A stretch of DNA of 64,000 nucleotides from an uncultured Gammaproteobacteria bacterium (GTDB lineage: Bacteria; Patescibacteriota; Microgenomatia; CAZXEC01): positions 326,903-390,902 of the forward strand of contig CAZXEC010000001.1 of assembly GCA_964639595.1 (NCBI GenBank). Direction: 5' to 3'. Shown in pieces: positions 30,380 to 61,179 of the stretch. The notes under the pieces were generated by a model, which saw only the letters and a list, made by a program, of their open reading frames with translations, was not told the DNA's origin and did not search any database. Every line of letters begins with the position of its first letter. The first letter of the stretch is position 1. The translations under genes and the position numbers were made by a program.

Positions 30380-31303
30380 ATGAAGTTAATCGTGCAAATA
30401 CCTTGCCATAATGAGGCAGCTACCATTGCCTGGGTTATCAAAGGAATTCCCAGATCCATCAGGGGCATTTCTAAGATAGAGGTTATGGTGATTGATGATG
30501 GTTCAACAGACCAAACCGTAAAAATTGCCAAGAAGGCTGGGGTAGACCACCTGATTTCTAATGAGAGAAAATTAGGTTTGGCTAAAACTTTTTATCTGGG
30601 GCTTGGAAAATGCTTAGAGAAAAATGCTGATATTATCGTTAATACAGATGGCGATAACCAATATGACCAATCACAGATCGTAAATCTGGTAAAACCAATA
30701 CTTGCACGCCAGGCTGATCTGGTGATCGGCAACCGGCAGGTAGAACGATTAAACTGGTTACCAAAAAGCAAAAAAATAGGCAATATTCTTGGCAGCTGGT
30801 TTATAAGAAAGTTAACTGGCACTCAAATAAGAGACGCTTCTAGCGGTTTTAGGGCGTTTTCGCGAGATTGCGCCAAAAATTTTATATCGTTATCCGATTA
30901 TACCTATACTCATGAGACTATTATACAAGCTTATGAGAATGGCCTAAATATAGTTGAAATACCAATCAATTTTCGACCAAGGATCAACGGCCAATCCAGA
31001 CTAATCAATAACACTTTCTGGCATATCCCTAGGTCTGCGCTGGTGATTATCAGGATGGTTTTACTGTACAAAGCTATTAAATTTTTTACTGTCATCGGCG
31101 TATCTACGATAGCAGTTGGGATACTTTTGGTAATCCGTTTTATGTATTATTTTGCAACCAGCGAAGGTAGGGGTCATATTCAGTCTTTAGTGCTTGCCTC
31201 TATTTTTATCAGCGTTGGTTTTAATATCTGGCTGCTGGGTATAATTACAGATGCTATTGCCATAAATCGTAAGTTAATAGAAAGAATAGTCAAAAAAAGA
31301 TAA
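30380..31303 (+). CDS. GT2 polyprenyl-phosphate glycosyltransferase (GtrB/ArnC/DPM1-like, with two C-terminal TM helices)
   Basis: GT2 core (VMVIDDGSTDQT; DGDNQYD) followed by two C-terminal TM helices. This is the classic architecture of lipid-phosphate sugar donor synthases. Confidence 0.7.
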   Translation: MKLIVQIPCHNEAATIAWVIKGIPRSIRGISKIEVMVIDDGSTDQTVKIAKKAGVDHLISNERKLGLAKTFYLGLGKCLEKNADIIVNTDGDNQYDQSQIVNLVKPILARQADLVIGNRQVERLNWLPKSKKIGNILGSWFIRKLTGTQIRDASSGFRAFSRDCAKNFISLSDYTYTHETIIQAYENGLNIVEIPINFRPRINGQSRLINNTFWHIPRSALVIIRMVLLYKAIKFFTVIGVSTIAVGILLVIRFMYYFATSEGRGHIQSLVLASIFISVGFNIWLLGIITDAIAINRKLIERIVKKR

Positions 31304-31970: not shown

Positions 31971-32678
31971 ATGGCCAAAATTCAAGCATCAGTTGTGCTG
32001 CCTACCTATAACGAATCAGGCAATATTATTGGCTTGATAGAGGAGATCAAAAAAGAGTTAACTGCCAAAAGGATTAGTTATGAGATTGTGGTGGTAGACG
32101 ACGATAGCCCTGATAAAACCGGACTTTTGGCTCAGAAATACTTTGCTAAAATTCCTGACGTTAGGGTTATTATTCGCAAGAATGCTAGGGGTTTAGCTAG
32201 CGCTATTCGTCGCGGGATTGAACAATCTGTCGGAGATATCATTGTGGTGATGGATACTGATTTTAACCACGAGCCAAGACTTATTCCCCGTTTGGTGGAA
32301 AAATGTGGCAGATATGACATGGTAGTTGGCTCCAGATTTGTTAAAGGCGGCGGGATGACTAATAAGACGAGAGAAACACTAAGTCGGTTATTTAATATTC
32401 TGATTAGAATAATTTTGGGTAGCCCGGTTCACGACAATTTGAGCGGATTTTTTGCCATAAAAACTAAAGAGCTGGATAAGATCAATTTTGATCAGGTATT
32501 TTGGGGCTACGGTGATTATTTTATCAGGCTGATTTATTTTATAAAAAAGCAAGGCAATACATTTTTCGAGATACCTTCTTATTATAAAGAACGGGAATAC
32601 GGTAGTAGTAAATCTCAATTTTTGCAGATGTTTAGGGATTACTTGGCTTCTACCTTGGCACTTCGGTTTGGGAATTAG
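31971..32678 (+). CDS. GT2, dolichyl/polyprenyl-phosphate mannose synthase (DPM1/Ppm1)-like, soluble
   Basis: SVVLPTYNESGNI..IVVVDDDSPDKT and a DTD motif; 235 aa with no TM segment. Confidence 0.7.
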   Translation: MAKIQASVVLPTYNESGNIIGLIEEIKKELTAKRISYEIVVVDDDSPDKTGLLAQKYFAKIPDVRVIIRKNARGLASAIRRGIEQSVGDIIVVMDTDFNHEPRLIPRLVEKCGRYDMVVGSRFVKGGGMTNKTRETLSRLFNILIRIILGSPVHDNLSGFFAIKTKELDKINFDQVFWGYGDYFIRLIYFIKKQGNTFFEIPSYYKEREYGSSKSQFLQMFRDYLASTLALRFGN

Positions 32679-40462: not shown

Positions 40463-41569
40463 TTAATGATCAGCCGAGTTATTGCTTGCCACTGTTTGTT
40501 GATAAGGGATAATAGCGCTGGATACTGGTTGACCGATAATTTCACTGTAACGTTGTTTGCCTTTGATGTAATACTGCCATAGAATGCTAAAAGGTGATAA
40601 TTCTTTCTCGGCAATACCGATGGGCACATTTCTGTGGAAACGCCGGTAGTTAATAGTGTTCTTTAGCCGCTTTGCAAAAGACAGATGAGCCAGTATAACC
40701 GACCAAACAAAATAGATATCTCCGGAGAGCGTATAGTAGACAGCGCTAACCAAGTCCAGTAAGAATCGTGCTGGTAGCACCCATATCAAACTGGTCAGGG
40801 TCATATTACGGGCAGCCAACAGTAGCGCGTTGCGGTGAACGTAGAAGATTCGTTTTTGTAGTTCTCTTTTTGATCTGCGGGATGAACCAGCCCCTTTGTG
40901 ATAGATAAGAGATCTAGGTACAAAGACAATGCGATAACCGGCATCTTTGAGTCTCCAACATAAATCGGTCTCTTCATGATAGAAAAAAAAATCTGTAGGC
41001 AACAGGCCATATTTAAGACCAATATCGCGCCGGAGCAAAAAAGCAGCACCAGAGGCCCAAAAAATATCAACCTCATCATCATATTGTCCTATGTCTTCCT
41101 CCAGGGAAAAACCAACCCGGCCTCTGGCATAAGGATATCCCAGTCGATCAATAAAACCACCGGCAGCTCCGGCGTAATCAAAGAAATTTTTGTTATAGAG
41201 AGAATGAATTTTACCCTGACAAACAGCAATTTTGGGATCAGACAGAGCAGCAGCAATTAAAGGTTCCAGCCAGTTGGGATCGACCTCGGTGTCATTATTG
41301 AGCAGGACGACAAATGGTGTTTTTATCTCGCGAATAATAATGTTATTTGCCCCGGCAAAACCTAAATTTTGCCCCAAAGCCCTCCAGGTAATTCTCGGAT
41401 CAGCAAATTCTGCCTGCAGGCTTGCCAGCTCATTTTCTTGCGAACCATTATCTATCACAATAACATTGAAGTGTTGGTAATTGGTTTTAAGAACTGAATT
41501 TAAGCAAATTCTGGTATCGGCAAGGCCATTAAAGTTGATAATAATAATGGAAACAGCAGCAGGCTTCAT
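40463..41569 (-). CDS. Glycosyltransferase family 2 (rhamnosyltransferase-like)
   Basis: VSIIIINFNGLADT..VIVIDNGSQ, and NNDT. Resembles 19626..20669. Confidence 0.75.
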   Translation of the reverse strand: MKPAAVSIIIINFNGLADTRICLNSVLKTNYQHFNVIVIDNGSQENELASLQAEFADPRITWRALGQNLGFAGANNIIIREIKTPFVVLLNNDTEVDPNWLEPLIAAALSDPKIAVCQGKIHSLYNKNFFDYAGAAGGFIDRLGYPYARGRVGFSLEEDIGQYDDEVDIFWASGAAFLLRRDIGLKYGLLPTDFFFYHEETDLCWRLKDAGYRIVFVPRSLIYHKGAGSSRRSKRELQKRIFYVHRNALLLAARNMTLTSLIWVLPARFLLDLVSAVYYTLSGDIYFVWSVILAHLSFAKRLKNTINYRRFHRNVPIGIAEKELSPFSILWQYYIKGKQRYSEIIGQPVSSAIIPYQQTVASNNSADH

Positions 41570-42233
41570 ATAGGATTTTTACATATAGCGATCAAATCTA
41601 TGGCTTGAGAGGTTTTGGTATTGATGGAATAATCATTCTCGCCAATATGATAAGTTTTGTTACCCTTATGAAGAATACTGCGTGTTAAATATGTTACAAT
41701 ATCACCAGCAAATTGCCTGATTGGCCGGGGTAGTAATTTCCTCAAGTTGAAGATGTCGCCTTTGAGTATTTTCAACACCATCTTTTTCCTGGCTTCTCCA
41801 TAAGTTGTAACTGTGGCATTCCCCCAAAGGCCATAAATAAACACCTCTTGAAAAAAGGCAGAAAGGAGCTGATACCATTCATCTGGTGTATATTCCTTGT
41901 AATGATAAGGATTTTCATTATAAGATTGGGTAATAGCGTTAGGTGTGGAGAAAATAGCCACACCATTTTTTGTAAGAGAGACCTCACTTTATCAAAAAAT
42001 ACTTGTGCATTGGGGAAATGCTCTATTGTTTGTAGGGCAATTATTACTTCAAATAGCGTATCAAAACTGCTTTGAATAAATTCCCACCATTCAAATTGTA
42101 AATTACCAGGTTGTCCTTTAAGACGCTTTGCTGCCTTGATAGCCAGTTGGGTAAAAGTGGGCATCAGAGCAGTATTATTGATGTCGGTTCTTTCCGCACT
42201 GATAGTGTAAAAAAATTGTTCAGGCCCAAGCAT
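41566..42233 (-). pseudogene. Frameshifted, 5'-truncated remnant of a class I SAM methyltransferase
   Basis: Two overlapping minus-strand ORFs sit in different frames (41772..42233 and 41566..41961). The upstream one carries FDTLFEVIIALQTIEHFPNAQVFFDKV, matching the post-motif-II region of an MTase. The downstream frame continues with TKNGVAIFSTPN (GG-like). No GxGxG motif I is present and there is no room for one upstream. Confidence 0.45.
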
Positions 42234-45076: not shown

Positions 45077-48046
45077 ATGAATCTAAAACATACCATTGTC
45101 TTGGCCGTTTTTGCTTTACCAGCTTTAGTTTGGTGGTTTGCACCTGGCTATGTAGTTGATGGAACTGACATCACCTTTCCATTGAATCCCCAGATTGCTC
45201 TTCAGAGATCATTCTATGCTTGGGATAACATTGATAATGCCGGTAGTTACCAAACCGCGATTCAGCTCAACCTAGCCAGACAACCCATTCACTTATTCTT
45301 GAGCTTTCTACAGATAACTGGTTTATCTATTGGTGATATTTCCAAGATATGGTATTTCACATTACTCTTCTTATCCGGAGTTGCTTTCTATTTTTTTATT
45401 GATCAATTGAGGCAATGGATTACCGCCTACAAGATACATCCTCTGTTTTGCGCCCTGTTTTATATGTATAACCCATATTTTATGCAACTAATTTCTGATC
45501 AGGCCATAATGCTCACCTACGTCTCTGTGCCACTTCTTGCCGGATTTTGTCTGCATGCTCTACGAAGGAGAAAAATATTTCCCGATATGCTTTGGATTGG
45601 AATGACTTGGTTCTTTTATTCTCCTGTTAACCCTAACTCCTTTGCTTCAGGCCTGTTGCTTTGGATGATGATTCTAATTGTAGCCAGCTATCATCTTTGG
45701 CGAAGCGCAAACCAAGAAACAATCCGATTCGCAAAAATTTTCTACATCGTCCTGGCTGCCACCACCATTGTTGTTAATGCTCGTGTTATCTTACCTTATT
45801 ACCAGTATTTGTCTAGTGATTTGGCAATTATCCAACAGACTTCCAAAGATTGGCTATCCGGTGTGAGCAAAAATACGACTTTTCCCAAAAGCGCACAGTT
45901 GATCGGAGCGTGGGATTGGTTTGAAAATTTTAATGGTGAAGCTTATGCGCCTTATGCTGCTTGGTATCAGGAGTTTTTTGTCAAGCTACTGGGAGTCTTA
46001 CTCCCTCTCTTGGTGGTGTTGGCGATAGTAATTGCCAGAGATAAATTTACTTGGTTTTTCGCAGGAGTAGCAGTGGCCGGTGTTATTCTTTCTACTGGTA
46101 CCCATCCTCCTTTCGGGTTTGTCTATCAGTTTCTATATGATCATGTTCCTGGGTTTTGGATTTTTCGCTCCCCCTGGTACAAGTTTAGTTTTTGGGTAGT
46201 TTTCTCATATGCTTTTTTCTTTGGCAAATTTACCACCAGCATAATTCAAAAACTGGGATCAAAACAAGTTAGGTTGGTTGATGTTTTAGTTTGGAATAAA
46301 AGAGCTTTGACCTACGCATTAGTTTATGGCGGAATTATCTGGTATGTAATTCTTTACTCCTGGCCTTTGTTTAATGGTTGGAGATTTACCAGGCCAGAAG
46401 AAAGGAAGGGTAATCTGCCGGCTACACAAGTAAAAATACCTGCTTATGTTTTTCAGACAGCAGATTTCATTAATAAACAACAAGAGGAGGGATCCATTAT
46501 ATTTTTGCCGCAAGTTGAACTTAATTATTCCATATATTTTTGGGGATATGGTAATTTGCAACCGCCGCTATTTTACTTACTGAATAAAAACCAGATTATA
46601 TATCTACCATTTGATAACCAAGTGGCCATCACGCAAAACTTATTGCAATTTAAGAAATATTTCTATCATGACTTACAATATCAAGCCCAAAAATTTGCTA
46701 ATTTAACATCAGCAAAATTTATAATTTTGCAAAAGGATTTTAATTATCAGCCATTTAAAGTTAATGAGGACAAACAATTCTTTCAAACTCGGCTAGACTC
46801 CAGTCGAATTTTTGAAAAAATTGCCAGTTTTGATGAATGGATTATCTACAAGAATCCTCAAGCTCTACCACCACTTTATGGAAATAGGTTTATTGTAGTG
46901 CCAGACAAACTGCCCAGCTTAGCAAATATTACCGCCGATGGGTTAGTCTACGCTCACCAAAATCAGCTACCATCGGATACTGTTAACGCCATAAAAACCA
47001 ATAGTCAGAATGTAGATCTATCTCAATTTCAACTGGCGGGAGATCAACTTATTAAATCTTTCCAGTTTGATAATCCCCAAGTAGCTGTTGTTGAGTCTAT
47101 TAAAACAAGTGAAACAAAACTATTGGTGAACGATAGCCCGTATACAATATCTGCTGATAATAAAGTTGATGTTGCCAGGCTACCTGTAGGTAATAACACA
47201 GTCTCAATCCCTGTCCGGCTATCAGAGAATATGGTAAAAAATCCTAATTTTAATTCAGGCCTCGATAACTGGGAATTGGCCAACTTATCTGAAGATATTA
47301 GCGCTAATATGAAAAAACACTTCCAGGCGGCACCAGGGCAGTTTACCCTATATTCAAGCGGAAAGAACTTGGGGATTTTCCAATATGTCAAAAAGGACGA
47401 TAAGACGCAAGTATATTCGATTTCGTTTGAATTTAACAAACAAGATCGCTCTGCCTCTAGGGTAGTATTATATGATGATATTCAGGGTGAGTTGGTAGCT
47501 GATGTTTTGCCATCTGGCAATATCTGGCAATCTTACCAAAAGCTGATCAAACTAGACCCGACAACAAAGAAATTTTCCATCAACTTCTTTGCCGCTACTG
47601 GACAAGAGTCAACGATTTTAGTTAGGAATGTCCGAATAAGAAAGGTCATAACGCCAATTATCTCATTGCAATTCTATCCACAATCTCAATGGGATAGTAT
47701 ACAAAAACTAGCCAGCCAGCCAGCCCCCGAGATAACAATCAACAGCCAAGATAAGACTGCAGTTGATTTTAATGTTCAATCTGATGGACCTATCTATTTA
47801 GTTTTCAACCAAACGTACCATCCGCTATGGAGACTATCTGGTAATTACCCTGATTATGCTGACCATTTTGTAGCCAATGGCTTTAGTAATGGATATTATC
47901 TAGCTAAAGCTGGGAATTATCACCTCAAACTGGAATTTGTTGGGCAGGCTAATTTGATTTTGGGCTGGCAGATTACGATTGTAGGCAGTTTTGCTTTACT
48001 TGCTATTTATCTAGTGCAAGCCGTAAAATCAAAACACATTATATAG
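45077..48046 (+). CDS. Giant YfhO/AftD(DUF3367)-like GT-C membrane protein; paralog B1
   Basis: N-terminal TM helix then DGTDITFPLNP. About 12 TM helices and a large extracytoplasmic region. The C-terminal hallmark YHPLWRLSGNYPDYADHFVANGFSNGYYLAKAGNYHLKLEF..(TM) resembles the YfhO C-terminus. Confidence 0.6.
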   Translation: MNLKHTIVLAVFALPALVWWFAPGYVVDGTDITFPLNPQIALQRSFYAWDNIDNAGSYQTAIQLNLARQPIHLFLSFLQITGLSIGDISKIWYFTLLFLSGVAFYFFIDQLRQWITAYKIHPLFCALFYMYNPYFMQLISDQAIMLTYVSVPLLAGFCLHALRRRKIFPDMLWIGMTWFFYSPVNPNSFASGLLLWMMILIVASYHLWRSANQETIRFAKIFYIVLAATTIVVNARVILPYYQYLSSDLAIIQQTSKDWLSGVSKNTTFPKSAQLIGAWDWFENFNGEAYAPYAAWYQEFFVKLLGVLLPLLVVLAIVIARDKFTWFFAGVAVAGVILSTGTHPPFGFVYQFLYDHVPGFWIFRSPWYKFSFWVVFSYAFFFGKFTTSIIQKLGSKQVRLVDVLVWNKRALTYALVYGGIIWYVILYSWPLFNGWRFTRPEERKGNLPATQVKIPAYVFQTADFINKQQEEGSIIFLPQVELNYSIYFWGYGNLQPPLFYLLNKNQIIYLPFDNQVAITQNLLQFKKYFYHDLQYQAQKFANLTSAKFIILQKDFNYQPFKVNEDKQFFQTRLDSSRIFEKIASFDEWIIYKNPQALPPLYGNRFIVVPDKLPSLANITADGLVYAHQNQLPSDTVNAIKTNSQNVDLSQFQLAGDQLIKSFQFDNPQVAVVESIKTSETKLLVNDSPYTISADNKVDVARLPVGNNTVSIPVRLSENMVKNPNFNSGLDNWELANLSEDISANMKKHFQAAPGQFTLYSSGKNLGIFQYVKKDDKTQVYSISFEFNKQDRSASRVVLYDDIQGELVADVLPSGNIWQSYQKLIKLDPTTKKFSINFFAATGQESTILVRNVRIRKVITPIISLQFYPQSQWDSIQKLASQPAPEITINSQDKTAVDFNVQSDGPIYLVFNQTYHPLWRLSGNYPDYADHFVANGFSNGYYLAKAGNYHLKLEFVGQANLILGWQITIVGSFALLAIYLVQAVKSKHII

Positions 48047-48062
48047 TAAGTTCGTTTTCCAG

Positions 48063-48105
48063 CCAGGTGTCAGCCCTGGTTTTGTGTATTTTGGCAGTAG
48101 CTGCC
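48063..48105 (+). terminator. Weak hairpin plus T-run after B1, followed by a second short hairpin
   Basis: CCAGG-tgtcagc-CCTGG-TTTTGTGTATTTTGG, then GGCAG-tag-CTGCC. This is the only sizeable intergenic gap in the B array. Confidence 0.25.
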
Positions 48106-48138
48106 CCATGTTGGATGTATTAATTGACCATAGAAAAT

Positions 48139-51100
48139 ATGAGAAAAGTTTTTAATCAAATCAGAAGATTTTGGGAGCTGGTTATCGTTTTTCTTTTCGG
48201 ACTGACGCCCGTTTTATGGTACAAGGGTGAAAGCTTGATCAATGGCGTTGATACTAATTTCCCCCTTGATCCTCTATCGTGGTGGCAAAGACGGTTTTTT
48301 GTCTGGGATGATACATTATATGGCGGGTCTGACTGGTCTTCTAATTTGGCTGGCATCTTCTTTCATGGTCTGCAAGTATTCTTTTATGAGGTGATCAGAT
48401 TTTCCCTGCAAAATACTGAAAAAGCCACCACTGTTTTCTGGTTTACCCTAATTTGTTTATCTATTTATATTCTTTTCAGAACTTTTCAAAAATCCCATTC
48501 TGGTCTTGTCAGAATTGTTCCGGTCGCCTTGTATGCCTATAATGTTTATTTATTTAACACTTGGGAAAATATTAAAGTTACTAATTTATCATTGATGGCA
48601 GCCCTGCCTCTGGCTCTTGCCGTAGTCAACCTATTTTTCAAAAACAGACTGTCGTTAATTGTTTGCCTGGTGCTACTTGGCGGAATATCGCTCATAGGTT
48701 CTGGAATGGGGATTAATCCTGCCTATCTGGCAGTATATTTGTCAACGTTAGTTGCCTTTGGCGTTTATATGGCTTTGGCAAACCACTATCAGAAGAGATG
48801 GGTGGTTGCATATGCAGCCATGTTTGTAGCAGCCGTATTAATAATTAATGCCTATTGGATTTTACCGCTCACCTTTAATCTGTTTGGTTGGGGGGGGACA
48901 CCGTTGCTTTCAGAGATAGGCCAGATTAATGCTGTGGATTGGATAGATGGACTGTCAGCTCACACTTCAATTTTTAATTTATTCAGGTTGTTGGGGGCAT
49001 GGGATTGGTATGGAGAAAGCTCGCCTGGCGTGCCGTATATACCTTATGCTTATAATTATTTCTCCAACCCAGTTTTTATATTTTTTGGCATCCTTATACC
49101 AATTTTGGGATTTTCATCTCTGCTGTTTTCAAGGCTAAGACGGGAAATAGTGTTTTTCAATCTGCTAGTATTAATCGGACTGTTTTTGTCAGCTGGAACC
49201 CATCCCCCAACTGGCAGATTTTTTAAAGTCTTATTAGATGCAGTGCCCTTCTTCTCATTTTTTAGGAGTCCTTGGTATATCTTTACTCCCATAGTTCTTT
49301 TGGGCTTGGCCATGTCGATTGGTTTACTTTTTGATCAACTTCTATATACGGCTAAGGGCAAATTTTGGCAGTGGAGACTGATTAAGCTTCCCCAAAGAAT
49401 AGCTTTATCTTTATTGATGTTGGTTTTTGTAATCTTTAATGTTTTATATTGCTATCCTTTGGTTAGCGGTGAGGTTTTTCGAGCCGGGACTCCGGGAAGT
49501 GTGCTAGTTAACATTCCCAATTATGTACTGGACACTCGAGATTTTTTGAATAGTCTTCCCAAAGACAAACGGATCATTTCTCTGCCATATACAACAAGTG
49601 AACATTTCAATTGGGAATATAAGGGGATCGCTTCCATATTAAATTTGCTCGCTCCTGTTAACGTGCTGACTTATAATTTTGCCAGTGCCAAAAATGACGC
49701 CATAGGCATACTGACTGATGAACTTTATAGAGCTATCCACTTTGGTGAAGTAGAAAATATTAAAAAACTGGCAGGACCGTTAAATGTGGAGTATTTGTAC
49801 AACAAAAATGATACCACTGACTTTGACAGTTCACCTCTATCACATCAAGTAGCCCAACAGATAGCAGATGCACCATTGCCTGCCAGTTTTGGTTTGTGGG
49901 ATTTTTGGAAGATTAAAGATCAATTTGTCTGGCCAAGGATTTTTGTTCCATCAAAAACAATATTTTCAGCAGAAGACGATGTTGGGCTGGTGAAAGATCT
50001 CTTGAGCATGACTGATGGATATCAGCCAAAACTTATCGCAAAAAGTAAATTAGACAAGCTAGCCAATGGCTGGATTAAGGCTTACCGTCAAGATGAGAGA
50101 ATAAGCTATTTATCACCAGATTTTAAAAATCGGGGGGTTTTTGAATATAGTAATTTGGAATTTAATCAAAATTTGGCAGTTTTTGATGTTAAGGTACCCA
50201 GAGATGGTCAATATCAACTCTATGTGGAGAAAGACCAGTTGGGAAGCTATGGCCTAGGATCGGGAAAACCCTGGGATATAATAATAGATAAGTATACCCT
50301 CTTAGAGAAGATGTATAAACTTAAAGTAGAAAAGTCAGATGTTAGATTTTTAGCACTGGAAAAATTTTTTCTATCAGAAGGTGGGCATACGATATCGATT
50401 AATCTGCCCAATAATTTCAATTATTTTGAAAATTATAAATTCGAAAGAATTGTCTTATCAACTGGTGAACTGGTTGGCCAATCAAAGGAAGAGTTTGAAA
50501 AGATGCCTTTTGCTAAGGTCAATTTAACGGTACGCTTAGGTGTTAGCCTTCCTGATATTAATTCAAAATCAATGTATCAAATTAGTTTGTTTGACCCAAC
50601 CCAGACAGCCTTGTCACGGGTGGTGATTGTTTCACAACAAATTCCCGAAAGAAATGTCATGTACTATCAGGTATCTACCAAGGACTATATCAGTTGGCCT
50701 TATACCAGACTCGTGATCAGACCGCTTTATTATCCGTCTATCTTAAATGTTGCTATTGATGATAATGGTAACAATATGCAATTTTTATCAAATCCAGCCA
50801 AAGAAATACAAGTGCATAGGATATTCACGAATAGCGTGATTTTAAAACCTGTCGGTGATGAATTGACAACGTCGCATGACTTGCCCCAAAATCCGCAAGT
50901 TAAATATGAGAAGCTGTCTCCAACTAAATATTTGGTGTCTATTGATAACGTTGACAGAAATACACCATTGGTTCTACAAGATAAGTTTTCACCGTCCTGG
51001 AAAGTCTACAGGAATGACGACAATGGCTATAATCTTTGGGCAACATGGGGCAAAAAGCCGATTTTGGAGAATAACCACCAGATTGCTAATGGTTACGGCA

Positions 51101-51267
51101 ATGTGTGGTGGCTACAAACCCCGGGATCATATGATTTAATCATAGAATATTGGCCACAAAGGCTTTTCTATCTGGGTTTCTTCATCAGTACATTAGTTTT
51201 TATTTTAGGATGTCTGATTGTTATCAGAGCAATTTTAATTACTAAATATGGCAGACAACTGGACTAA
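48139..51267 (+). CDS. Giant YfhO/AftD-like GT-C membrane protein; paralog B2
   Basis: INGVDTNFPLDP N-motif. The C-terminal block reads FSPSWKVYRNDDNG...HQIANGYGNVWWLQTPGSYDLIIEYWP..(TM). The start is set at the ATG 15 nt inside the listed TTG. Confidence 0.6.
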   Translation: MRKVFNQIRRFWELVIVFLFGLTPVLWYKGESLINGVDTNFPLDPLSWWQRRFFVWDDTLYGGSDWSSNLAGIFFHGLQVFFYEVIRFSLQNTEKATTVFWFTLICLSIYILFRTFQKSHSGLVRIVPVALYAYNVYLFNTWENIKVTNLSLMAALPLALAVVNLFFKNRLSLIVCLVLLGGISLIGSGMGINPAYLAVYLSTLVAFGVYMALANHYQKRWVVAYAAMFVAAVLIINAYWILPLTFNLFGWGGTPLLSEIGQINAVDWIDGLSAHTSIFNLFRLLGAWDWYGESSPGVPYIPYAYNYFSNPVFIFFGILIPILGFSSLLFSRLRREIVFFNLLVLIGLFLSAGTHPPTGRFFKVLLDAVPFFSFFRSPWYIFTPIVLLGLAMSIGLLFDQLLYTAKGKFWQWRLIKLPQRIALSLLMLVFVIFNVLYCYPLVSGEVFRAGTPGSVLVNIPNYVLDTRDFLNSLPKDKRIISLPYTTSEHFNWEYKGIASILNLLAPVNVLTYNFASAKNDAIGILTDELYRAIHFGEVENIKKLAGPLNVEYLYNKNDTTDFDSSPLSHQVAQQIADAPLPASFGLWDFWKIKDQFVWPRIFVPSKTIFSAEDDVGLVKDLLSMTDGYQPKLIAKSKLDKLANGWIKAYRQDERISYLSPDFKNRGVFEYSNLEFNQNLAVFDVKVPRDGQYQLYVEKDQLGSYGLGSGKPWDIIIDKYTLLEKMYKLKVEKSDVRFLALEKFFLSEGGHTISINLPNNFNYFENYKFERIVLSTGELVGQSKEEFEKMPFAKVNLTVRLGVSLPDINSKSMYQISLFDPTQTALSRVVIVSQQIPERNVMYYQVSTKDYISWPYTRLVIRPLYYPSILNVAIDDNGNNMQFLSNPAKEIQVHRIFTNSVILKPVGDELTTSHDLPQNPQVKYEKLSPTKYLVSIDNVDRNTPLVLQDKFSPSWKVYRNDDNGYNLWATWGKKPILENNHQIANGYGNVWWLQTPGSYDLIIEYWPQRLFYLGFFISTLVFILGCLIVIRAILITKYGRQLD

Positions 51268-51607
51268 ACAGATCGTAAAAAATTTTAAGAGAAAACAGCC
51301 AGAATTGTTGTTTCTGACAATGGTGGCTGTCCTATTATTATCGTTGCAGCAGACTGATTATTTTTTACCATTTATCAGATTAAACTTGCTTTTAAGCACT
51401 TTTATTATCTACAGTTTAGCTATTTTTGTTCTTAAAATTAATCAACAATTTACAGTTATCTTAGGTCTGGTAGCCTTAGCTCTGTCATTCCCGAATTTTC
51501 TATTCCACTATGTATCATGGGCTGAACGGATTTCACTTTATGCTTATGGATTCTTTCTACTGGGTATCCTTCAAACTATGATTACTCATAAAAATAATGC
51601 TAAATAG
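51248..51607 (+). CDS. Small 3-4 TM membrane protein (hypothetical; a GtrA-like flippase role is speculative)
   Basis: 119 aa and hydrophobic, sitting between YfhO-like genes. Overlaps the end of B2 by 20 nt; an alternative internal Met start exists. No GtrA signature motif could be confirmed. Confidence 0.3.
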   Translation: MADNWTKQIVKNFKRKQPELLFLTMVAVLLLSLQQTDYFLPFIRLNLLLSTFIIYSLAIFVLKINQQFTVILGLVALALSFPNFLFHYVSWAERISLYAYGFFLLGILQTMITHKNNAK

Positions 51608-51770
51608 ACTAGCCAATTTTTGCCTACTGGTCAGTTTCACATTATTGCTGGTGGCTTTTGCATCTATTCTTGGCAACCATCCAGGATTTGCTAATCAGGT
51701 AGTTGAGAAAAGCTATCTAGTTTTATTAAGTGCTATTGTGTTGAAGTTTGCATTAAATTTTTTGTTATGA
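51597..51770 (+). CDS. Unlisted small two-helix hydrophobic ORF (~57 aa), translationally coupled on both sides
   Basis: The ATG overlaps the TAG of the upstream gene (ATGCTAAATAG). The product MLNRLANFCLLVSFTLLLVAFASILG...YLVLLSAIVLKFALNFLL ends in a TGA that overlaps the B3 start (TTATGA). It falls below the ORF-track length cutoff. Coordinates are approximate (±3). Confidence 0.3.
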   Translation: MLNRLANFCLLVSFTLLLVAFASILGNHPGFANQVVEKSYLVLLSAIVLKFALNFLL

Positions 51771-54439
51771 AGCTATCAGGCCAAAGTGCTGCTATTTCAT
51801 TACTGGCGATATTGTCCATTTTGGTGTTTCATAGTTTTTTGACTACTAACCCTTTATCTTTTGGTGATGCACCCTTTTTTACCCAACTCAATTTGAAAGA
51901 GTTTTTCAATCCACCCATTAGTTGGGGTGCCAGAAATGAGAATTTCGGTGGGTTTGAAGCGGCCCGTTTATGGATTTATCCGCTACTGGTGCTGTCAAGC
52001 CTTTTTGGGATGCTGAATTTGGATAGCACTATTGCCATCAGGATAATTTTTTATATTCCGGCTGTGGGTTTCGCGCTGTATGGATCTTGGTTGTTATCAG
52101 GTGTGTTTGTCAGTCAAATGTGGGCTAAATTCGCAGTTGCCACGTTTTATACTATTAATACCTACTTTTTATTATTAATTGACGGCGGGCAAGTCGGAGT
52201 GGCTTTGGCTTATGGCGTATTCCCCTTGGCGGTGTTCACTTTATTTTATACAGCAAAAAGCTGGACCGTAACAGGTAATCTATTGGCGATTATCGCCTGG
52301 TCTTTGGTGACAGCAGCTGATTTGAGAGCATCTGTTTTATTGCCGATTGTGGCGATTTTGATTTGTTTGGTAAAAAACACTTCTTACCTAACAAGAACTA
52401 TTTTGGTTATCTTAGCATCAGGGATGGTAGTTATGCTGCTCAATTCATATTGGCTGCTGGCTCTATTTTTTACTAATTCAGGTATTCCTGCCCAAGATGT
52501 TGTTTCGCCTGCTCAGATTGCTGCTGTCAGCTTTACTAAACTAGCAAATTCATATCTGGTGCTTCAACCACACTGGTTTATTAATGAATTTGGTCAAATC
52601 ACACCTGTTCTGCCCAGTTTTTTGATTATACCGGCAGTAGCATTTTGGGGACTTTTTTACAAAAATCGGCAGACCATGCTTTTATCTTTTATCGCAATAG
52701 CATTTATTTTTTTGGCCAAAGGAGCCAACGATCCAGCGGGTAATTGGTATTTATGGATGTTTGATCGTATTCCCGGTTTTGGCATATTCCGTGATTCAAC
52801 TAAATTTTTTGTAGCGGAAATGATCTTTTACTCATTGCTTTTGGGGGTCAGTTTAGAACGACTCATAGTCAGTAAAAGTAAAATGCTGCTGGTTGTTATT
52901 GTGTTGTTGGCTGTCTATTTTGCCGGCATCATCTTCCCAGTTATAACCAACCAACTAAGTGGTAATTTGGGCCCAGGTGTCTATCCTGAATCATATCACC
53001 AACTTCAGCAATACCAAGCAGATGATGATTTTTACCGTCTGCTCTATTTTCCTTCCAAACCGTCTTATGCGCCAGAAAGTTTAGATCATCCTGCTTTATG
53101 GGCCAATTCCCTGTATCTTAAACGCCCATTCGGTATTCTTATTGATGGAGTTTATGATAAATTTTATTTTTTGCACCAGCCATTCTTTAAACAACTCTTG
53201 GATTTATCGGGCGTCAAGTATGTTTTCTTTGCGCCTGATCCGTATCGCAAGATTTGGACTGGTCAGAAGGTTGCCGAAAGACAGCAATTCCTGGATTTTG
53301 TTGACACTCTCACTTTGGGTAGGAAGATTGAATTCGACGACTACCCGATTTATCAGACTCAACGTCATTCTCCTCATTTTTTTGCTGCTGACCAGGCTTT
53401 AGCTATTTTAGGCGGCGATGATTTTTATTTCTGGATATCTAAACTGGCAGATTTCCGCCTGTCTAATGTTCCCATTTTGTTTTTGGAAGATGGCCAAACA
53501 ACGACAGCTGATCTGGAGAGAATAAACCCCGATTCTTTGAAATTGATATTTTGGTCCAAATCAGCACCAGACCTCACGTTTTCATTAATACCCAAAGATC
53601 ACCTGACCAGTTTATCAGATAATTATTTTTCTCAATGGGCTCACCTTACTGCAAACCAAATTTTAGAATGGCGGGATACAGCCAATAAGCATGGTATTGT
53701 CAATTATGATTTCAATTTTGGTAAGGGGATTGCCTGGTCTGATATTCGCGATCAGGTGATAAAACTCAAAATTAATGCAACAGATCCTGGACGATATAAA
53801 TTGTACGCCAGAGCTCTATCGGCAACAGATAGCGCCAGTTTGTCATTCCAGTTGGATAACTATTACCCGACAACTATAGAGACCACACCTGCTCGTTTTT
53901 CCTGGTATGATTTAGGCGAGTACAACTTGAATCAAGGACACCATGATATCCAAATCAAAAATAGTGGTGGTTTCTGGGCTGTCAACAGTTTGATTTTAAT
54001 TGATAAGCAAACTTTTGATCAACTGGAGCAACAAGCTAAAGTATTGACAGAAAAATTCCCACCCATTTACCTGGATAGTACTTCTCCTATCCAGACCTTG
54101 TCCAATTTGATCCGCTATCAACCTTTTGTCAGTCCCCCCTATAAGACTCAAAACCCGGCTACTTATCAGGTTCAAGTTGATAATCTTGACGCTCCCTACT
54201 GGCTAATCTTTACAGATTCATATAACGATGGTTGGCAGGCAAGATATTCCAACAATACTAGCCCAAGTTTGCCGTTTTATAGCTTTATCAACGGATTTTA
54301 TATCGATCAAAATTCAGATAGCGCAACCATAGATTTTGCGCCTCAAAAATGGACTAATATTGGGACTGGTGTTGCTACTGCTACATTGATTATGGCACTT
54401 GGGTTATTATTGTATTTGATCAGGCAGAGGGAAAAATAA
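51767..54439 (+). CDS. Giant YfhO/AftD-like GT-C membrane protein; paralog B3
   Basis: About 12 TM helices. The C-terminal block reads YWLIFTDSYNDGWQARYSNN...FINGFYIDQNSDSATIDFAPQ..(TM). Confidence 0.6.
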   Translation: MKLSGQSAAISLLAILSILVFHSFLTTNPLSFGDAPFFTQLNLKEFFNPPISWGARNENFGGFEAARLWIYPLLVLSSLFGMLNLDSTIAIRIIFYIPAVGFALYGSWLLSGVFVSQMWAKFAVATFYTINTYFLLLIDGGQVGVALAYGVFPLAVFTLFYTAKSWTVTGNLLAIIAWSLVTAADLRASVLLPIVAILICLVKNTSYLTRTILVILASGMVVMLLNSYWLLALFFTNSGIPAQDVVSPAQIAAVSFTKLANSYLVLQPHWFINEFGQITPVLPSFLIIPAVAFWGLFYKNRQTMLLSFIAIAFIFLAKGANDPAGNWYLWMFDRIPGFGIFRDSTKFFVAEMIFYSLLLGVSLERLIVSKSKMLLVVIVLLAVYFAGIIFPVITNQLSGNLGPGVYPESYHQLQQYQADDDFYRLLYFPSKPSYAPESLDHPALWANSLYLKRPFGILIDGVYDKFYFLHQPFFKQLLDLSGVKYVFFAPDPYRKIWTGQKVAERQQFLDFVDTLTLGRKIEFDDYPIYQTQRHSPHFFAADQALAILGGDDFYFWISKLADFRLSNVPILFLEDGQTTTADLERINPDSLKLIFWSKSAPDLTFSLIPKDHLTSLSDNYFSQWAHLTANQILEWRDTANKHGIVNYDFNFGKGIAWSDIRDQVIKLKINATDPGRYKLYARALSATDSASLSFQLDNYYPTTIETTPARFSWYDLGEYNLNQGHHDIQIKNSGGFWAVNSLILIDKQTFDQLEQQAKVLTEKFPPIYLDSTSPIQTLSNLIRYQPFVSPPYKTQNPATYQVQVDNLDAPYWLIFTDSYNDGWQARYSNNTSPSLPFYSFINGFYIDQNSDSATIDFAPQKWTNIGTGVATATLIMALGLLLYLIRQREK

Positions 54440-54442
54440 ACC

Positions 54443-55696
54443 ATGGATAGCATATGGAACTTAGTCAAACTATTATCTTCAACAACTGCCAGGCATACTT
54501 TTTATACTTTGACCGGTAACAGCGCCAACGTATTGGCGGTTTTAATTTTCACTAAAATTGCCACATCGCAACTATCGATCTCTGATTATGGTACGCTTGC
54601 TGTTTGTTTGGCGCTGTTTACCCTTTTTTTAGATGTCTTTGATTTAGGATTGTCAACTGCTGTCGTGAGACTGACTGCTGCCAATAGAGGTAATCAGCTG
54701 GGGCTGGTCAACCTTGTTGCCTCCGGCGGCCTGCTGCGGATATTATCTGGCACCTTACTTTTTATATTTGCACTAGTCAGCGCCAGATATTTTGCTGCTA
54801 TCCTGCTGCATGATGAAGCCAAGTCATATTTAATAGTTTTAGCTGCATTAGGGGCAGTAGCACTACTGTGGCAGAATTTTATTGCCAGTATTCTGCAGGG
54901 GCTGGAGCAGTTTTTAAAAAACAGCTTATTGGCAGTTGCCCTTGGTTCAACTAGGCTATTGGGCCTGTTGCTGTTGATTTTCTATTTACCTAGCGTATCG
55001 TTATTCGCAGCCATTTTTGTACTATCGCCTGTGGTACCTGCTGTTATTGGTATGTTCTTGTTGCCGCTTTTCCCGCTAATTGGTAAAGTAGATATTTCAG
55101 CAATTGGGTCAATCGTGAAATTCTCCCGTTGGATGATGTTGTTTGGTATTTTTGCGGCCATTGGATCCAGACTGGATATTCTAATGCTATCGTCAACGAT
55201 GTCAACTTACCAAGCAGGAGTGTACGGGGCGGCGGCCCGTTTGATTACTGTTTTTATCTTGATCACCACCAGTTTTGGCACGGTGTTAGTACCGCGTTTT
55301 TCTCGGATTACTGTTCTGGAACTGCCGGCCCTTATTAAAAAGACTATGCCGGGCGTTGGTGTATTAATTATATTGATGCTCATATCTATGATCTTGGCTC
55401 CTTTAGTTGTGCCCCTGTTTGTGACATACGGGCAGTCCATCCCAATTTTTCAACTGCTGGTTTTAGCCTACTTGCCGTTTGTTTTATCATTGCCAGCCAT
55501 GGCAGCCCTCTATACCTTAAATGCACCGCAGGTTATGGCATTGGTGGCGTTTTGCCAGTTGGTAATAGTAGTTTTTTTCAATTGGCTACTAATTCCGCCA
55601 TTGGCAGAAATTGGAGTTATCATCAGTTTAGGGATATCTCATCTGATGGCTCTAGTAATTGCCTGGACGTATATTATTATCAAGATAAAAGGCTGA
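54443..55696 (+). CDS. Wzx-like polysaccharide flippase (MOP/PST superfamily)
   Basis: 417 aa with about 12 TM helices. N-terminal ...TGNSANVLAVLIFTKIATSQLSISDYG... pattern and an internal repeat organisation. Confidence 0.65.
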   Translation: MDSIWNLVKLLSSTTARHTFYTLTGNSANVLAVLIFTKIATSQLSISDYGTLAVCLALFTLFLDVFDLGLSTAVVRLTAANRGNQLGLVNLVASGGLLRILSGTLLFIFALVSARYFAAILLHDEAKSYLIVLAALGAVALLWQNFIASILQGLEQFLKNSLLAVALGSTRLLGLLLLIFYLPSVSLFAAIFVLSPVVPAVIGMFLLPLFPLIGKVDISAIGSIVKFSRWMMLFGIFAAIGSRLDILMLSSTMSTYQAGVYGAAARLITVFILITTSFGTVLVPRFSRITVLELPALIKKTMPGVGVLIILMLISMILAPLVVPLFVTYGQSIPIFQLLVLAYLPFVLSLPAMAALYTLNAPQVMALVAFCQLVIVVFFNWLLIPPLAEIGVIISLGISHLMALVIAWTYIIIKIKG

Positions 55697-58729: not shown

Positions 58730-59740
58730 ATGAAAATCGCATTTTTAAATATTAGCCAGAGTCTTGTTCAAAGAGGCGCTGAAACATTCGTCCGTGAATT
58801 ATCAACGAGGCTGGCTCAAGACCACCAAGTAACTGTTGTCAGTGGTCACAAAATTCCACCGGGCAGATGGCCTATTATATGGAGATTTTTCATTGATGGG
58901 CATGGATTGTATATTTTATGGTTCACTTTATCTAAAATTCCACTGTTATGGAAGGAAAAATTTGATGTTGTTGTTCCTCTCAATGGCGGCTGGCAATCGC
59001 TGTTGGTGCGCGTCCTTACCCTGCTTTATGGCGGCAAGATGATTATATCAGGACAGTCTGGGAAAGGTTGGGATGATAGAGTTAATTTGTGGTTTTTTCC
59101 AAGTCGCTTCGTGGCCTTGTCTTCTTCTTTGTCTAAATGGGCCAAAAGGATAAATCCATTTACTGAAGTTTCTTATATACCCAACGGCGTTGATCTTGTT
59201 CGTTTTACTCCTGAAGGGGCAAAGGCCAAAGTTAGCCTCAATGGCCCAATTTTCTTGTGCGTTGGCGCACTTACCCATGAAAAAAGAATTGATTTGGCAA
59301 TTCGCGCAGTTTATAAACTTGCCAAGGGCAGTTTATTGGTAATAGGCCAGGGGAAAGATGAGAAGCAGCTGTCTTTATTAGGACAGCAACTTTTAGGGAA
59401 TAGGTTTAAGATTGTTAGCGCTGATTTTGAACAAATGCCTAACTGGTACAGGGCCGCTCACATTTTCACCTTGCCGTCGCCCTCATATAGAGCATTTGAA
59501 ATAGTTCTAGTTGAGGCGATGGCCTGTAATTTACCGGTGGTGGTCAATGATGACCCAATCCGTCGAGAAATTGTCCAGGAAGCTGGTTTATTTGTTAATC
59601 CTGATAAAATAGAGGCATATGCCAAGGCTTTGGACCAGGCTCTGGCAAGAAGTTGGTATAATAAACCCAGGATACAGGCAGAAAAATTCTCTTGGGATAA
59701 AATTACCCAGCAATATCTACAACTTTTTCAAGACCAATGA
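58730..59740 (+). CDS. Glycosyltransferase family 4 (GT-B fold)
   Basis: ...FEIVLVEAMACNLPVVVND... EX7E-type region. Confidence 0.7.
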   Translation: MKIAFLNISQSLVQRGAETFVRELSTRLAQDHQVTVVSGHKIPPGRWPIIWRFFIDGHGLYILWFTLSKIPLLWKEKFDVVVPLNGGWQSLLVRVLTLLYGGKMIISGQSGKGWDDRVNLWFFPSRFVALSSSLSKWAKRINPFTEVSYIPNGVDLVRFTPEGAKAKVSLNGPIFLCVGALTHEKRIDLAIRAVYKLAKGSLLVIGQGKDEKQLSLLGQQLLGNRFKIVSADFEQMPNWYRAAHIFTLPSPSYRAFEIVLVEAMACNLPVVVNDDPIRREIVQEAGLFVNPDKIEAYAKALDQALARSWYNKPRIQAEKFSWDKITQQYLQLFQDQ

Positions 59741-61179
59741 GACGGCAGATCTTTTTTCTGGGGGGCCTTATTACCAGCTTCTTGTTAGTTTGGCCAACTT
59801 TAAGCTCATATTTTGCTCAGGATGATTTTTTCCATTTTAGACTTGCCCAAGAACATTCACTGCTATCATTATTCCAGTTACCCGAAGGCTATTGGTTTTA
59901 TAGACCAATCGCTAGGGAACTTTATAATTGGCTGACCTTTAATTTATTTGGGTTAACACCGCTACCATATCATTTATTAATCTATGCTTTATATTTATTG
60001 AACGCGGGATTAGCCGCTCTTATTATTAAGTATATAACAAAAAAAACCCAAACAGCAGGCCTGATGTTTTTGCTGATTACATCATCCGGAGTTATCAATG
60101 TAGATTCTTATTACTTGGCATCTAATGAAATTTTAATGTCGTCAATCTTCATGTTGACCGCATTATATTTTTATTTAAGGTTCACTGACAAAAAAACTTG
60201 GAAATTGTATGCCGCTGGTTTAGTTTTTTATTTAGCAGCCCTGTTTTGTCAAGAAGTGGCGCTGGTCTTCCCCTTGATTTTATTAGCCATAGAGCTTTAT
60301 GCTACCAAACCGCTTGATTTCAGGGCTTTAGCATGCAGGCTTTCCCCGTTTGCTATCCTGGCTGCTTTTTTGGTGATAATTGATGTTTGGGTGATAGGTC
60401 TGCCGCCGGATCAGCAGTACCGGACTGTTTTTACTCCCAAAACTTTTCTCAATTCAATTTTTTGGTACAGTTTGTGGGGGATGGGCATATCGGAAATATT
60501 GGTCGATTTTGTCAAAGATTTCAAATTTTCCCCAGATTTTTTGATCTGGTATGCTAATTATTTAAAAATTGCCATGGGGATGCTTGTTATATTTATGGCA
60601 ATTCTAGTTAGCCTTTTTTTGCATGATATTAAAAAATTACCGTATAGACTGATGATATTGTTGATGGCTCTCTATGTGATATCGCTTTTACCATTTTTAC
60701 TTTTACCAGATCATAAGCAAAGTTACTATTTATCATTTGGGCAGATTTGGCTTTACGGACTTTTTGCGATTATTTTTAGTCAAGCTTTAGCCAGTCCGCG
60801 CATGCGAGTAACAATCGTGATTGGACTTGCTGCTTTTTTCTTGACTAACTTTGCCACTAGTCGCCTAAACGATAAAACTTATTGGGCTGCCAAAAGAGCT
60901 AAAGCTGCTCAAGCTTTATTGGAAAATATCCAAAAGCAGTATCCACAAGTTGCGGCCAGTTCAACTTTTTATTTCATCAGCAATAAGTCTTACCCGGATT
61001 TTGCACAATCTTGGGGGAGTTCTTCACAGCAAGCTGCATTGATTCTATCAGGAGCAGATGCCTTAAAAGTTGTCTATAATGACAGGTCCATCTCGGCCTT
61101 GTTCGATAATGCTGGTAGCTTACCAAGAAGCATCGACCATGATAAAGTATTAACAGTAGAGGCCGTTTTCCCTTACTAA
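59737..61179 (+). CDS. GT-C-like membrane glycosyltransferase related to the A1-A3 N-terminal domain, without the discoidin domain
   Basis: YFAQDDFFHF...YRPIAREL...GLTPLPYHLL parallels YFWKDDSALMF...YRHILEPF...GLEPTGYF in A1. About 11 TM helices. Confidence 0.5.
   Translation: MRRQIFFLGGLITSFLLVWPTLSSYFAQDDFFHFRLAQEHSLLSLFQLPEGYWFYRPIARELYNWLTFNLFGLTPLPYHLLIYALYLLNAGLAALIIKYITKKTQTAGLMFLLITSSGVINVDSYYLASNEILMSSIFMLTALYFYLRFTDKKTWKLYAAGLVFYLAALFCQEVALVFPLILLAIELYATKPLDFRALACRLSPFAILAAFLVIIDVWVIGLPPDQQYRTVFTPKTFLNSIFWYSLWGMGISEILVDFVKDFKFSPDFLIWYANYLKIAMGMLVIFMAILVSLFLHDIKKLPYRLMILLMALYVISLLPFLLLPDHKQSYYLSFGQIWLYGLFAIIFSQALASPRMRVTIVIGLAAFFLTNFATSRLNDKTYWAAKRAKAAQALLENIQKQYPQVAASSTFYFISNKSYPDFAQSWGSSSQQAALILSGADALKVVYNDRSISALFDNAGSLPRSIDHDKVLTVEAVFPY

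Follow-up and report, generated by a model that had tools for sequence, protein, structure and literature searches.

The 64-kb stretch of Daviesbacteria DNA analysed here (hereafter the window, that is, the whole stretch, to whose positions all coordinates refer) carries three giant membrane proteins, B1, B2 and B3, with two small hydrophobic open reading frames (ORFs), s119 and s57, lying between B2 and B3. The locus raises a double question: which enzymes are the giants, and are their small neighbours real genes acting as flippases for lipid-linked sugars, or as subunits of the enzymes themselves? An original prediction, made from the sequence alone, had placed the giants among YfhO-family or DUF3367 (AftD-type) GT-C glycosyltransferases and had suggested that one of the small ORFs could be a flippase-like partner. 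Its suspicion that the small ORFs matter was right, in that they are conserved, coding and coupled to GT-C genes; the reading that we favour is that they are membrane subunits rather than flippases. Daviesbacteria belong to the Microgenomates within the Patescibacteria, or candidate phyla radiation (CPR), organisms with tiny genomes whose cell surface is where epibionts meet their hosts. The window has a GC content of ∼40% throughout, and s119 is recorded at NCBI as a hypothetical protein of Candidatus Daviesbacteria.

Organization of the locus

All five ORFs were found at the predicted places, with the predicted start and stop overlaps:

45077..48046, + strand: B1, 989 amino acids (aa), predicted AftD-type GT-C glycosyltransferase; paralogue of B2, without a small partner gene of its own in the window
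48124..51267, + strand: B2, 1047 aa when read from TTG, predicted AftD-type GT-C glycosyltransferase; matches PF11847
51248..51607, + strand: s119, 119-aa small membrane protein of a conserved family, proposed partner of B1/B2-type enzymes
51597..51770, + strand: s57, 57-aa protein with a hairpin of two transmembrane (TM) helices, of a conserved family, proposed partner of B3-type enzymes
51767..54439, + strand: B3, 890 aa, predicted divergent AftD-like GT-C glycosyltransferase of a Pfam-less family

The TTG start of B2 lies at 48124, while gene callers choose the ATG at 48139, which gives 1042 aa. B2 and s119 overlap by 20 nt, s119 and s57 by 11 nt (ATGCTAAATAG), and s57 and B3 by ATGA; the last two are the ATG/TAG and ATGA overlaps from which translational coupling had been predicted.

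Judged by sequence comparison, the expected tandem triplet of related proteins is a pair of clear paralogues (B1 and B2, 26% identical over 487 residues, BLASTP E 5e-33) together with a distant relative, B3, for which pairwise comparison with B1 and B2 gave E-values no better than 2e-5 and 4e-6. The motif DGxDxxFPL(N/D)P, thought to be common to the three N-termini, is exact in B1 only (DGTDITFPLNP); it has one mismatch in B2 (NGVDTNFPLDP), and in B3 (FGDAPFFTQLN) only its G-D is kept. The predicted C-terminal block did prove common to all three, in the form W...(N)G(F/Y)...(L/I)x(L/I)(E/D)(F/Y)..Q followed by a final TM helix, which is the single C-terminal TM helix of each protein; this block aligns weakly with residues 1198-1266 of AftD. 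The first outer loop contains an Asp that is nearly invariant in B1 (D31) and invariant in B3 (D34), with D43 of B2 aligned to both, and the loop motifs FRDSTKF and FRSPWYKF are invariant in the B-family alignments.

The giant proteins belong to the AftD lineage

The AftD half of the family prediction was borne out. B2 passes the threshold of PF11847 (GT-C_AftD; E 5.7e-9, 34.9 bits against a gathering score of 26). Taken individually, B1 has no Pfam match and B3 none to PF11847. The domain is often carried by homologues of B1. In the B1/B2 family alignment, whose 20 rows include B1 and B2, 10 rows matched it; in the B3 family alignment, no row out of 36 did so, and four matched PF10131, a membrane-protein family. 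A search of the PDB sequences with B2 alone found no match, and the family profile was needed: the B1/B2 profile retrieved the cryo-electron microscopy structures of Mycobacterium abscessus AftD (6W98/6WBX, E 2e-12) through three collinear stretches, i.e. the N-terminal membrane core, the soluble domain that follows it and the C-terminal block.

For B3, the family profile gave only noise against the PDB sequences and a fold search was required. The B3 and B1/B2 families align to each other with an hhalign probability of 100 (E 1.6e-48, 814 columns). Furthermore, when the AlphaFold2 (AF2) model of B3 (predicted local distance difference test, pLDDT, 86; predicted TM-score, pTM, 0.84) was compared with the PDB using Foldseek, the best match was AftD 6W98_A (E 1.4e-13, query-normalised TM-score 0.52), followed by STT3 and CBM6/35 structures, and the beta-sandwich of the model does resemble CBM6/CBM35 structures. 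Residues 239-249 of B3 form a long disordered loop at the position of the flexible EL4 loop in GT-C enzymes. B3 is tied to the AftD family through profile-profile comparison plus the modelled fold, and on these profiles and this predicted fold we assign B1, B2 and B3 to the GT-C enzymes of the AftD (PF11847/DUF3367) lineage. In the hidden Markov model (HMM) alignment, the first-loop Asp of the B families falls within 2 positions of K39/D41 of AftD, residues of the first extracytoplasmic loop that are essential in that enzyme (bioRxiv 10.1101/2019.12.22.885152); by analogy, this Asp is probably catalytic.

The B3 family is large. Homologues numbered 197 at E≤0.001; among the 120 listed, nearly all are full-length and ∼30% identical, and the named ones among the matches listed are all 'hypothetical'. 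The genome scan located the family in Davies-, Blackburn-, Woese- and Levybacteria.

NCBIfam also returned a sub-threshold match (E 5e-12; 45 bits, where the cut-off is 210) between residues 287-433 of B3 and MmpA, which is known from Corynebacterineae as a 'trehalose lipid delivery protein'. It is a hint that this part of the membrane core is common to B3 and MmpA-type proteins.

Two other identities of the giants have to be considered. One, the other half of the original prediction, is membership of the YfhO family, in which case the giants would work with CsbB/GtrB and GtcA to glycosylate teichoic-acid-like polymers; the overall plan is similar (multi-TM N-terminus, large outer domain, terminal TM helix) and a GtrB-like GT2 is present in the window. 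The YfhO model PF09586, however, gave no match to B1-B3 (E≤0.01), and the two family alignments, whose 56 rows include B1-B3, gave none even at E≤0.1; the significant matches go to PF11847 and to AftD structures instead, and the tests of the small-protein family with PF04138 and hhalign, described below, yielded no GtcA/GtrA. This identity is close to refuted at the family level and we regard it as very improbable. The other is that B1-B3 are GT-C-folded proteins without transferase activity, e.g. scaffolds for export or delivery of glycans or lipids, a notion that draws on the MmpA match, far under its curated cut-off as that is, and on the lack of a Pfam glycosyltransferase model for B3. Against it stand the invariant first-loop Asp and FRDSTKF/FRSPWYKF motifs, which would be expected of a catalyst; moreover, the collinearity with AftD extends over the full length and B1-B3 sit inside a glycan-assembly operon, and we consider a scaffold role quite unlikely.

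The small ORFs are genes

s119 and s57 are real genes, as the original prediction had supposed; they are conserved across dozens of species-level genomes and under purifying selection. Between the window and a related locus in which B3 is 74% identical (L086), the ratio of nonsynonymous to synonymous substitution rates (dN/dS) was 0.155 for s119 and 0.128 for s57, values comparable to the 0.12-0.15 of B1-B3, and orthologues of both small genes are present in L086 and L087. Gene calls were compared on NCBI contig JACQJB010000011.1 of the metagenome-assembled genome GCA_016198195.1, which is reported as containing the window. The s57 gene (window 51597-51770; locus L002 3143-3303) is missing from the annotation of that contig, and its orthologue in L086 (9829-9999) is intact despite the absence of a gene call there; s57 is under purifying selection in the window and L086. 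No clear Shine-Dalgarno site was seen upstream of the small ORFs, which is uninformative because several neighbouring genes also lack one.

One could still argue that frames which are this short, have no Pfam match and no obvious Shine-Dalgarno site, and in the case of the 57-aa ORF went uncalled in two annotations, are chance frames or degenerate remnants in a hydrophobic AT-rich spacer, devoid of function. Such an origin is refuted by the conservation, with dN/dS values of 0.13-0.16 and motifs kept in dozens of species-level genomes at a fixed position relative to the giant genes, as well as by the confident s119 model and the in-frame fusions described below, and it can practically be dismissed.

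The AF2 model of s119 (pLDDT 91.6) consists of an amphipathic N-terminal helix and 4 TM helices, and s57 has 2 TM helices, in keeping with the ∼4 and 2 helices returned by the topology check proposed in the original prediction. s119 carries the motifs D-Y-F-x-P-F and W-A-E-R, predicted to lie at the outer face, and s57 carries the loop motif G-N-H-P-G-F-A. In s119, K/R-rich tails at the N- and C-terminus contrast with a neutral loop 1 and a net acidic loop 3; the same bias exists in s57 but is weaker. By the positive-inside rule, the K/R-rich tails of s119 place both termini in the cytoplasm (N-in/C-in), which would in turn put YFxPF and WAER of s119 and NHPGFA of s57 on the outer face, where the catalytic loop of the GT-C enzymes also lies.

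s119 and s57 form a single family of hairpin proteins

A word-indexed homologue search with s119 found only 3 proteins, and an exhaustive search with the narrow profile of these 3 sequences found 20 clusters among 1.84 billion representatives. The family was therefore recovered from related genomes; that is, all ORFs were taken from 80 related loci and HMMs were iterated over them. Because the s119 iteration kept growing, the s119 HMM was rebuilt from ORFs of ≥90 aa before homology to s57 was tested. The rebuilt HMM matched 14 of the 37 s57 proteins, with E-values down to 1e-8, and 13 of these 14 matches mapped to the last two helices of s119 (positions ∼70-124 of 127). Comparison of the two families gave an hhalign probability of 95.6 (E 1.3e-8). 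By these profile comparisons, s57 is homologous to the C-terminal half (second hairpin) of s119, and the two belong together in a single new Microgenomates family of small hairpin proteins of the membrane, which occurs with one hairpin, with two hairpins and fused to an enzyme. The s119 profile matched neither AftD nor any other chain in the PDB.

The fused form was encountered among the 120 B3 homologues listed, 10 of which, at 944-978 aa, are longer at the N-terminus by 60-80 residues; this extra segment is homologous to s57 (probability 97 by hhalign, E 8.5e-11). A continuous s57-B3 fusion ORF of 951 aa was verified in a Daviesbacteria locus (L023, 9773-12628), and the linker between hairpin and B3 in the fusions contains several Lys/Arg.

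A third subtype, free-standing and 72-77 aa long, starts with MKPQDI and bears the motif FTAERLxWYA. It was found in glycan loci of a Levybacteria-containing group, at the following positions and at others:

L075, 12824-13045: free-standing 72-77-aa subtype
L078, 12948-13166: the same
L083, 12657-12890: the same
L080, 17840-18058: the same
L082, 14433-14654: the same

In these loci the gene is not beside a GT-C gene. It directly follows an ArnC-like GT2 in three loci; elsewhere it stands after an epimerase-like gene and before a conserved block made up of a 176-aa ORF and a GT4.

Each enzyme type has its own small partner gene

The small genes keep to their giants in the related loci. Of the 57 B1/B2-like genes, 44 have an s119-type ORF that begins between -80 and +60 nt from their stop codon. 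Of the 77 B3-like genes, 37 have an s57-type ORF whose end reaches or overlaps their start, and 13 more have an s119-type ORF at that position. Several of the seemingly empty positions are occupied by divergent ORFs with 2-4 TM helices, and one is a fusion. The conserved gene order is a B2-like gene, s119, optionally 1-3 inserted genes (sometimes on the other strand), s57, B3, and a Wzx-type gene, followed by GT2, methyltransferase, 460-aa TM protein, GT4, GT2 and PMT_2. Since the B2-s119 and s57-B3 pairs remain intact despite the inserted genes, the units that are kept together are B2 with s119 and s57 with B3. Moreover, loci in which s119 directly abuts B3 (12 loci) typically lack s57, and those in which the two pairs stand apart (25 loci) have it; both were seen together in 4-5 loci and in this window.

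Candidate donor synthases and the Wzx-type flippase

The genes in the window that could supply a lipid-linked donor to B1-B3 are the following:

30380..31303, + strand: candidate polyprenyl-phosphate sugar synthase of GtrB/ArnC/AglJ-like type, 307 aa, with a GT2 domain and 2-3 C-terminal TM segments
31971..32678, + strand: second ArnC/PgfS-like GT2, 235 aa (NCBIfam ArnC, E 6.7e-21, under the curated cut-off)
54443..55696, + strand: Wzx-type (Polysacc_synt) flippase, PF01943 and PF13440

The gene at 30380..31303 had been put forward as a GtrB-like synthase of C55-P-sugars, and its product fits that description. It matches PF00535 (E 9e-20), has its TM segments within residues 220-295, and is 25% identical to GtrB of phage SfV (E 4e-9); its best NCBIfam matches are AglJ (E 2e-34), Dol-P-hexose transferase, PpgS, PgfS and ArnC, all under the equivalog cut-offs. 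The gene adjoins, and diverges from, a PMT-type GT-C gene at 28724-30328 (- strand). The protein encoded at 31971-32678 is possibly a second lipid-phosphate sugar synthase, judging by its ArnC match; no TM segments were found in it. The Wzx-type gene is separated from B3 by 3 nt, and 46 of 70 related loci have such a gene immediately downstream of the B3-like one. For some bacteria, a protein of the Wzx type has been suggested to do the flipping in systems of this sort (PMC8035078).

Subunits or flippases?

Our overall model, in which we have moderate confidence, is that AftD-type GT-C enzymes draw on lipid-linked donors and are accompanied by s119 and s57 as membrane subunits. B1-B3 would each consist of an N-terminal multi-helix membrane core bearing the first-loop Asp (D31/D43/D34), an outer part comprising a large alpha/beta and beta-sandwich (CBM-like) region, and the single C-terminal anchor. 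On the cytoplasmic face, the GT2 of 30380-31303, and perhaps also that of 31971-32678, would make the polyprenyl-phosphate-sugars; with the Wzx protein or an unlinked protein as the default candidates for donor flipping, B1-B3 would then transfer single sugars from the lipid donors, outside the membrane, onto the cell-surface glycan of the 64-kb cluster. s119, with its two hairpins, would serve B1/B2-type enzymes (here B2) and s57, with one hairpin, B3-type enzymes. As dedicated subunits physically associated with the enzymes, both may pack against the GT-C membrane domain with their loop motifs outside, beside the catalytic first loop, where they could stabilise the enzyme or help to build the lipid-donor site. 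We prefer a subunit to a flippase because of the fusions to B3, the pairing of one partner with each enzyme type and the conserved Wzx gene after B3.

Several observations weigh against this model. About one quarter of the B3-like genes have no detectable small partner, some of them being at contig ends or fused. No B2-s119 fusion was found among the 57 genes or the database homologues, so that a physical association of s119 would rest on gene adjacency and on its homology to s57. The third subtype, away from any GT-C gene, means that the family is not strictly a GT-C accessory. The 30380-31303 gene is 14-20 kb from B1-B3 and may have the adjacent PMT-type GT-C as its true partner; given this distance and this neighbour, its partnership with B1-B3 can only be presumed. 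Finally, no family of UbiA or DprE type, as a decaprenyl-phospho-arabinose route would need, was present among the Pfam matches of the scanned ORFs.

The main alternative is that the small proteins are a flippase for lipid-linked sugars, functionally analogous to GtrA/GtcA or ArnE/F, in which s119 would work as a unit of 4 TM helices, perhaps dimeric, and s57 as a half-unit that oligomerises, to supply B2 and B3. s119 resembles GtrA-type proteins, which have 3-4 TM helices and are probably dimers (PMC8035078, PMC7389260), in size and helix number, and it abuts a GT-C gene, but s57 has 2 TM helices and the GtrB-like gene is ∼20 kb off. The conserved charged residues at the membrane interface (E/R, H/K) would suit a flippase, as would the lack of a GtrA-family gene in the window (the scans revealed no other GtrA-like ORF) and the free-standing subtype, which three times follows an ArnC-like GT2 and so fits a role with a shared lipid-linked substrate. 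A kinship to GtrA itself, as originally predicted, was not supported by either of two comparisons. That is, PF04138 (GtrA) was matched by 0 of 26 members of the s119 family at E≤1, neither s119 nor s57 having any Pfam match, and the s119 family profile aligned to authentic GtrA of phage SfV with an hhalign probability of 0.06%; there is no sequence or profile kinship to any solved structure either. Furthermore, a hairpin fused to the N-terminus of a transferase looks more like extra helices of the enzyme than like a transporter, the small partner is specific to the enzyme type here while the GtrA-type flippases that are known work with several GT-C enzymes, and the Wzx-type gene, of a kind proposed for flipping elsewhere, is conserved right after B3. 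Altogether, we think a flippase unlikely. A further reading is a donor-delivery device, in which s119 and s57 would bind the head group of the polyprenyl-phosphate-sugar at the outer leaflet, or translocate it, and pass it to the docked enzyme. This would explain why each enzyme type has its own copy, the fusion, and the free-standing subtype in other glycan loci; we hold it to be a tentative possibility of low probability.

The surrounding surface-glycan cluster

A Pfam scan indicated surface-glycan synthesis as the role of nearly every scanned ORF in the 64 kb. The products include a UDP-glucose dehydrogenase, epimerases/dehydratases, a PglF-like dehydratase and 2 DegT aminotransferases, and the glycosyltransferases comprise ∼8 GT2, 4 GT4 and 4 GT-C enzymes of PMT/PMT_2 type. 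At least 7 proteins in the window thus have GT-C support (B1-B3 and the 4 PMT-type enzymes). The cluster also includes the Wzx-type flippase, 6 giant membrane proteins (B1-B3 and A1-A3), amino-sugar enzymes, and methyl- and carbamoyltransferases. The principal features outside the B1-B3 locus are:

7876-10029: PMT/PMT_2-type GT-C enzyme (Pfam)
10807-12996: PMT/PMT_2-type GT-C enzyme (Pfam)
28724-30328, - strand: PMT/PMT_2-type GT-C enzyme (Pfam)
34865-37600, + strand: A1, giant membrane protein, 911 aa
37597-40455, + strand: A2, giant membrane protein, 952 aa
42301-44988, + strand: A3, giant membrane protein, 895 aa
55698..63444, + strand: downstream module (Pfam), with synteny kept in related loci
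61978-63444: PMT/PMT_2-type GT-C enzyme (Pfam)

A1, A2 and A3, directly upstream of B1-B3, are a second giant triplet, which the original prediction did not mention. They are mutually paralogous (44% and 31% identity), and each combines a multi-TM N-terminus with an F5/8 type C (discoidin) domain. No kinship to the B families was detected (hhalign of A3 against the B1/B2 profile, probability 0.8%). The N-terminus of A1 is weakly similar to a 480-aa TM protein at 59737-61179. The downstream module encodes, in order, a GT2 (267 aa), a methyltransferase (274 aa), a 463-aa multi-TM protein, a GT4, a 480-aa multi-TM protein, a GT2 (280 aa) and a PMT_2-type GT-C (488 aa).

The window has 2 carbamoyltransferases (17834-19636; 26597-28303, - strand) and ∼10 S-adenosylmethionine-dependent methyltransferase ORFs, an unusually large number, spread across it, which predicts a heavily O-methylated and carbamoylated glycan. 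A small membrane ORF of 108 aa with 1-2 hydrophobic segments (28300-28626, - strand) adjoins the carbamoyltransferase at 26597-28303, and a homologue of it directly precedes a carbamoyltransferase in a related locus (L009 6563-6775); given this recurrence, it may be a conserved partner of that enzyme. At 41566-42233 (- strand), two overlapping ORFs of 131 and 153 aa in different frames, without Pfam match, resemble by eye the halves of a class-I methyltransferase (e.g. 'LQTIEHFPN', 'IFSTPNA'), which suggests a frameshifted gene or an assembly error. Lastly, many contigs carrying the module, including L007-L010 and L015-L017, are publicly titled 'uncultured Gammaproteobacteria bacterium' (binchicken / third-party annotation, TPA, assemblies); for contigs with a Microgenomates module, this looks like a labelling artefact of the submissions.

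Significance

These results extend the AftD lineage, a mycobacterial drug-target family, into Microgenomates and define within it a large B3-type subfamily that goes undetected by Pfam. A full-text literature search found nothing on AftD-type enzymes in Patescibacteria/CPR among the papers listed, which is not proof of novelty. The hairpin family, previously undescribed, is genetically locked to GT-C enzymes and sometimes fused to them, and one of its members is a 57-aa gene that standard annotation overlooked. s119 and s57 provide a concrete, testable case for the flippase-versus-subunit question about small partners of GT-C enzymes, as in Rv3789/AftA. More than 64 kb are given to one surface-glycan cluster here despite a very small genome.

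Comparison with known systems

Among known systems, AftD of Mycobacterium/Corynebacterium (PF11847, formerly DUF3367; 6W98), the best profile match for B1/B2 and the best fold match for B3, is the closest to the giants. It shares with B1-B3 a GT-C core whose first loop bears an acidic residue, beta-sandwich domains of CBM type that come after a soluble GT-C domain (the CBM match being computed for the B3 model), and re-entry into the membrane by a helix after the W...NG...LxLxF block (bioRxiv 10.1101/2019.12.22.885152). The differences are considerable. AftD is an actinobacterial enzyme of ∼1400 aa, as against 890-1047 aa in this patescibacterial locus, and it has TM12 and a TM13-16 bundle binding an acyl carrier protein where B1-B3 have one C-terminal helix. 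The B3 family falls under Pfam detection, no decaprenyl-phospho-arabinose genes were present among the Pfam matches of the scanned ORFs, and the separate or N-terminally fused small hairpin proteins are undescribed for AftD.

At the level of the pathway, the locus recalls the three-component logic in which a polyprenyl-phosphate sugar, the product of a membrane-anchored GT-A, is moved by a flippase and its sugar is then added outside by a GT-C enzyme (PMC8035078, PMC11127046). The GtrA/GtrB/Gtr, CsbB/GtcA/YfhO and PPPRS/MATE/GT136 systems follow this logic, and a GtrB-like GT2 is present here too. The window differs from them in having no GtrA-family member, no YfhO signal and a synthase that is not beside B1-B3, and in that the small proteins are specific to the enzyme type and can fuse to the GT-C.

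The small proteins themselves can be compared with other small membrane partners of glycosylation enzymes. The Ost4-type mini-subunits of oligosaccharyltransferase are small TM proteins tied to a membrane glycosyltransferase. Rv3789, of the GtrA family, has been seen either as a flippase or as an anchor of AftA, the same ambiguity as for s119 and s57 (PMC7389260), and GacJ is a small membrane protein of three TM helices proposed to act with the GT-A enzyme GacI (PMC8035078). Like s119 and s57, all of these are small TM proteins that are genetically or physically tied to a membrane glycosyltransferase; they have no sequence kinship to s119 and s57, which are built from a repeated two-helix hairpin unit.

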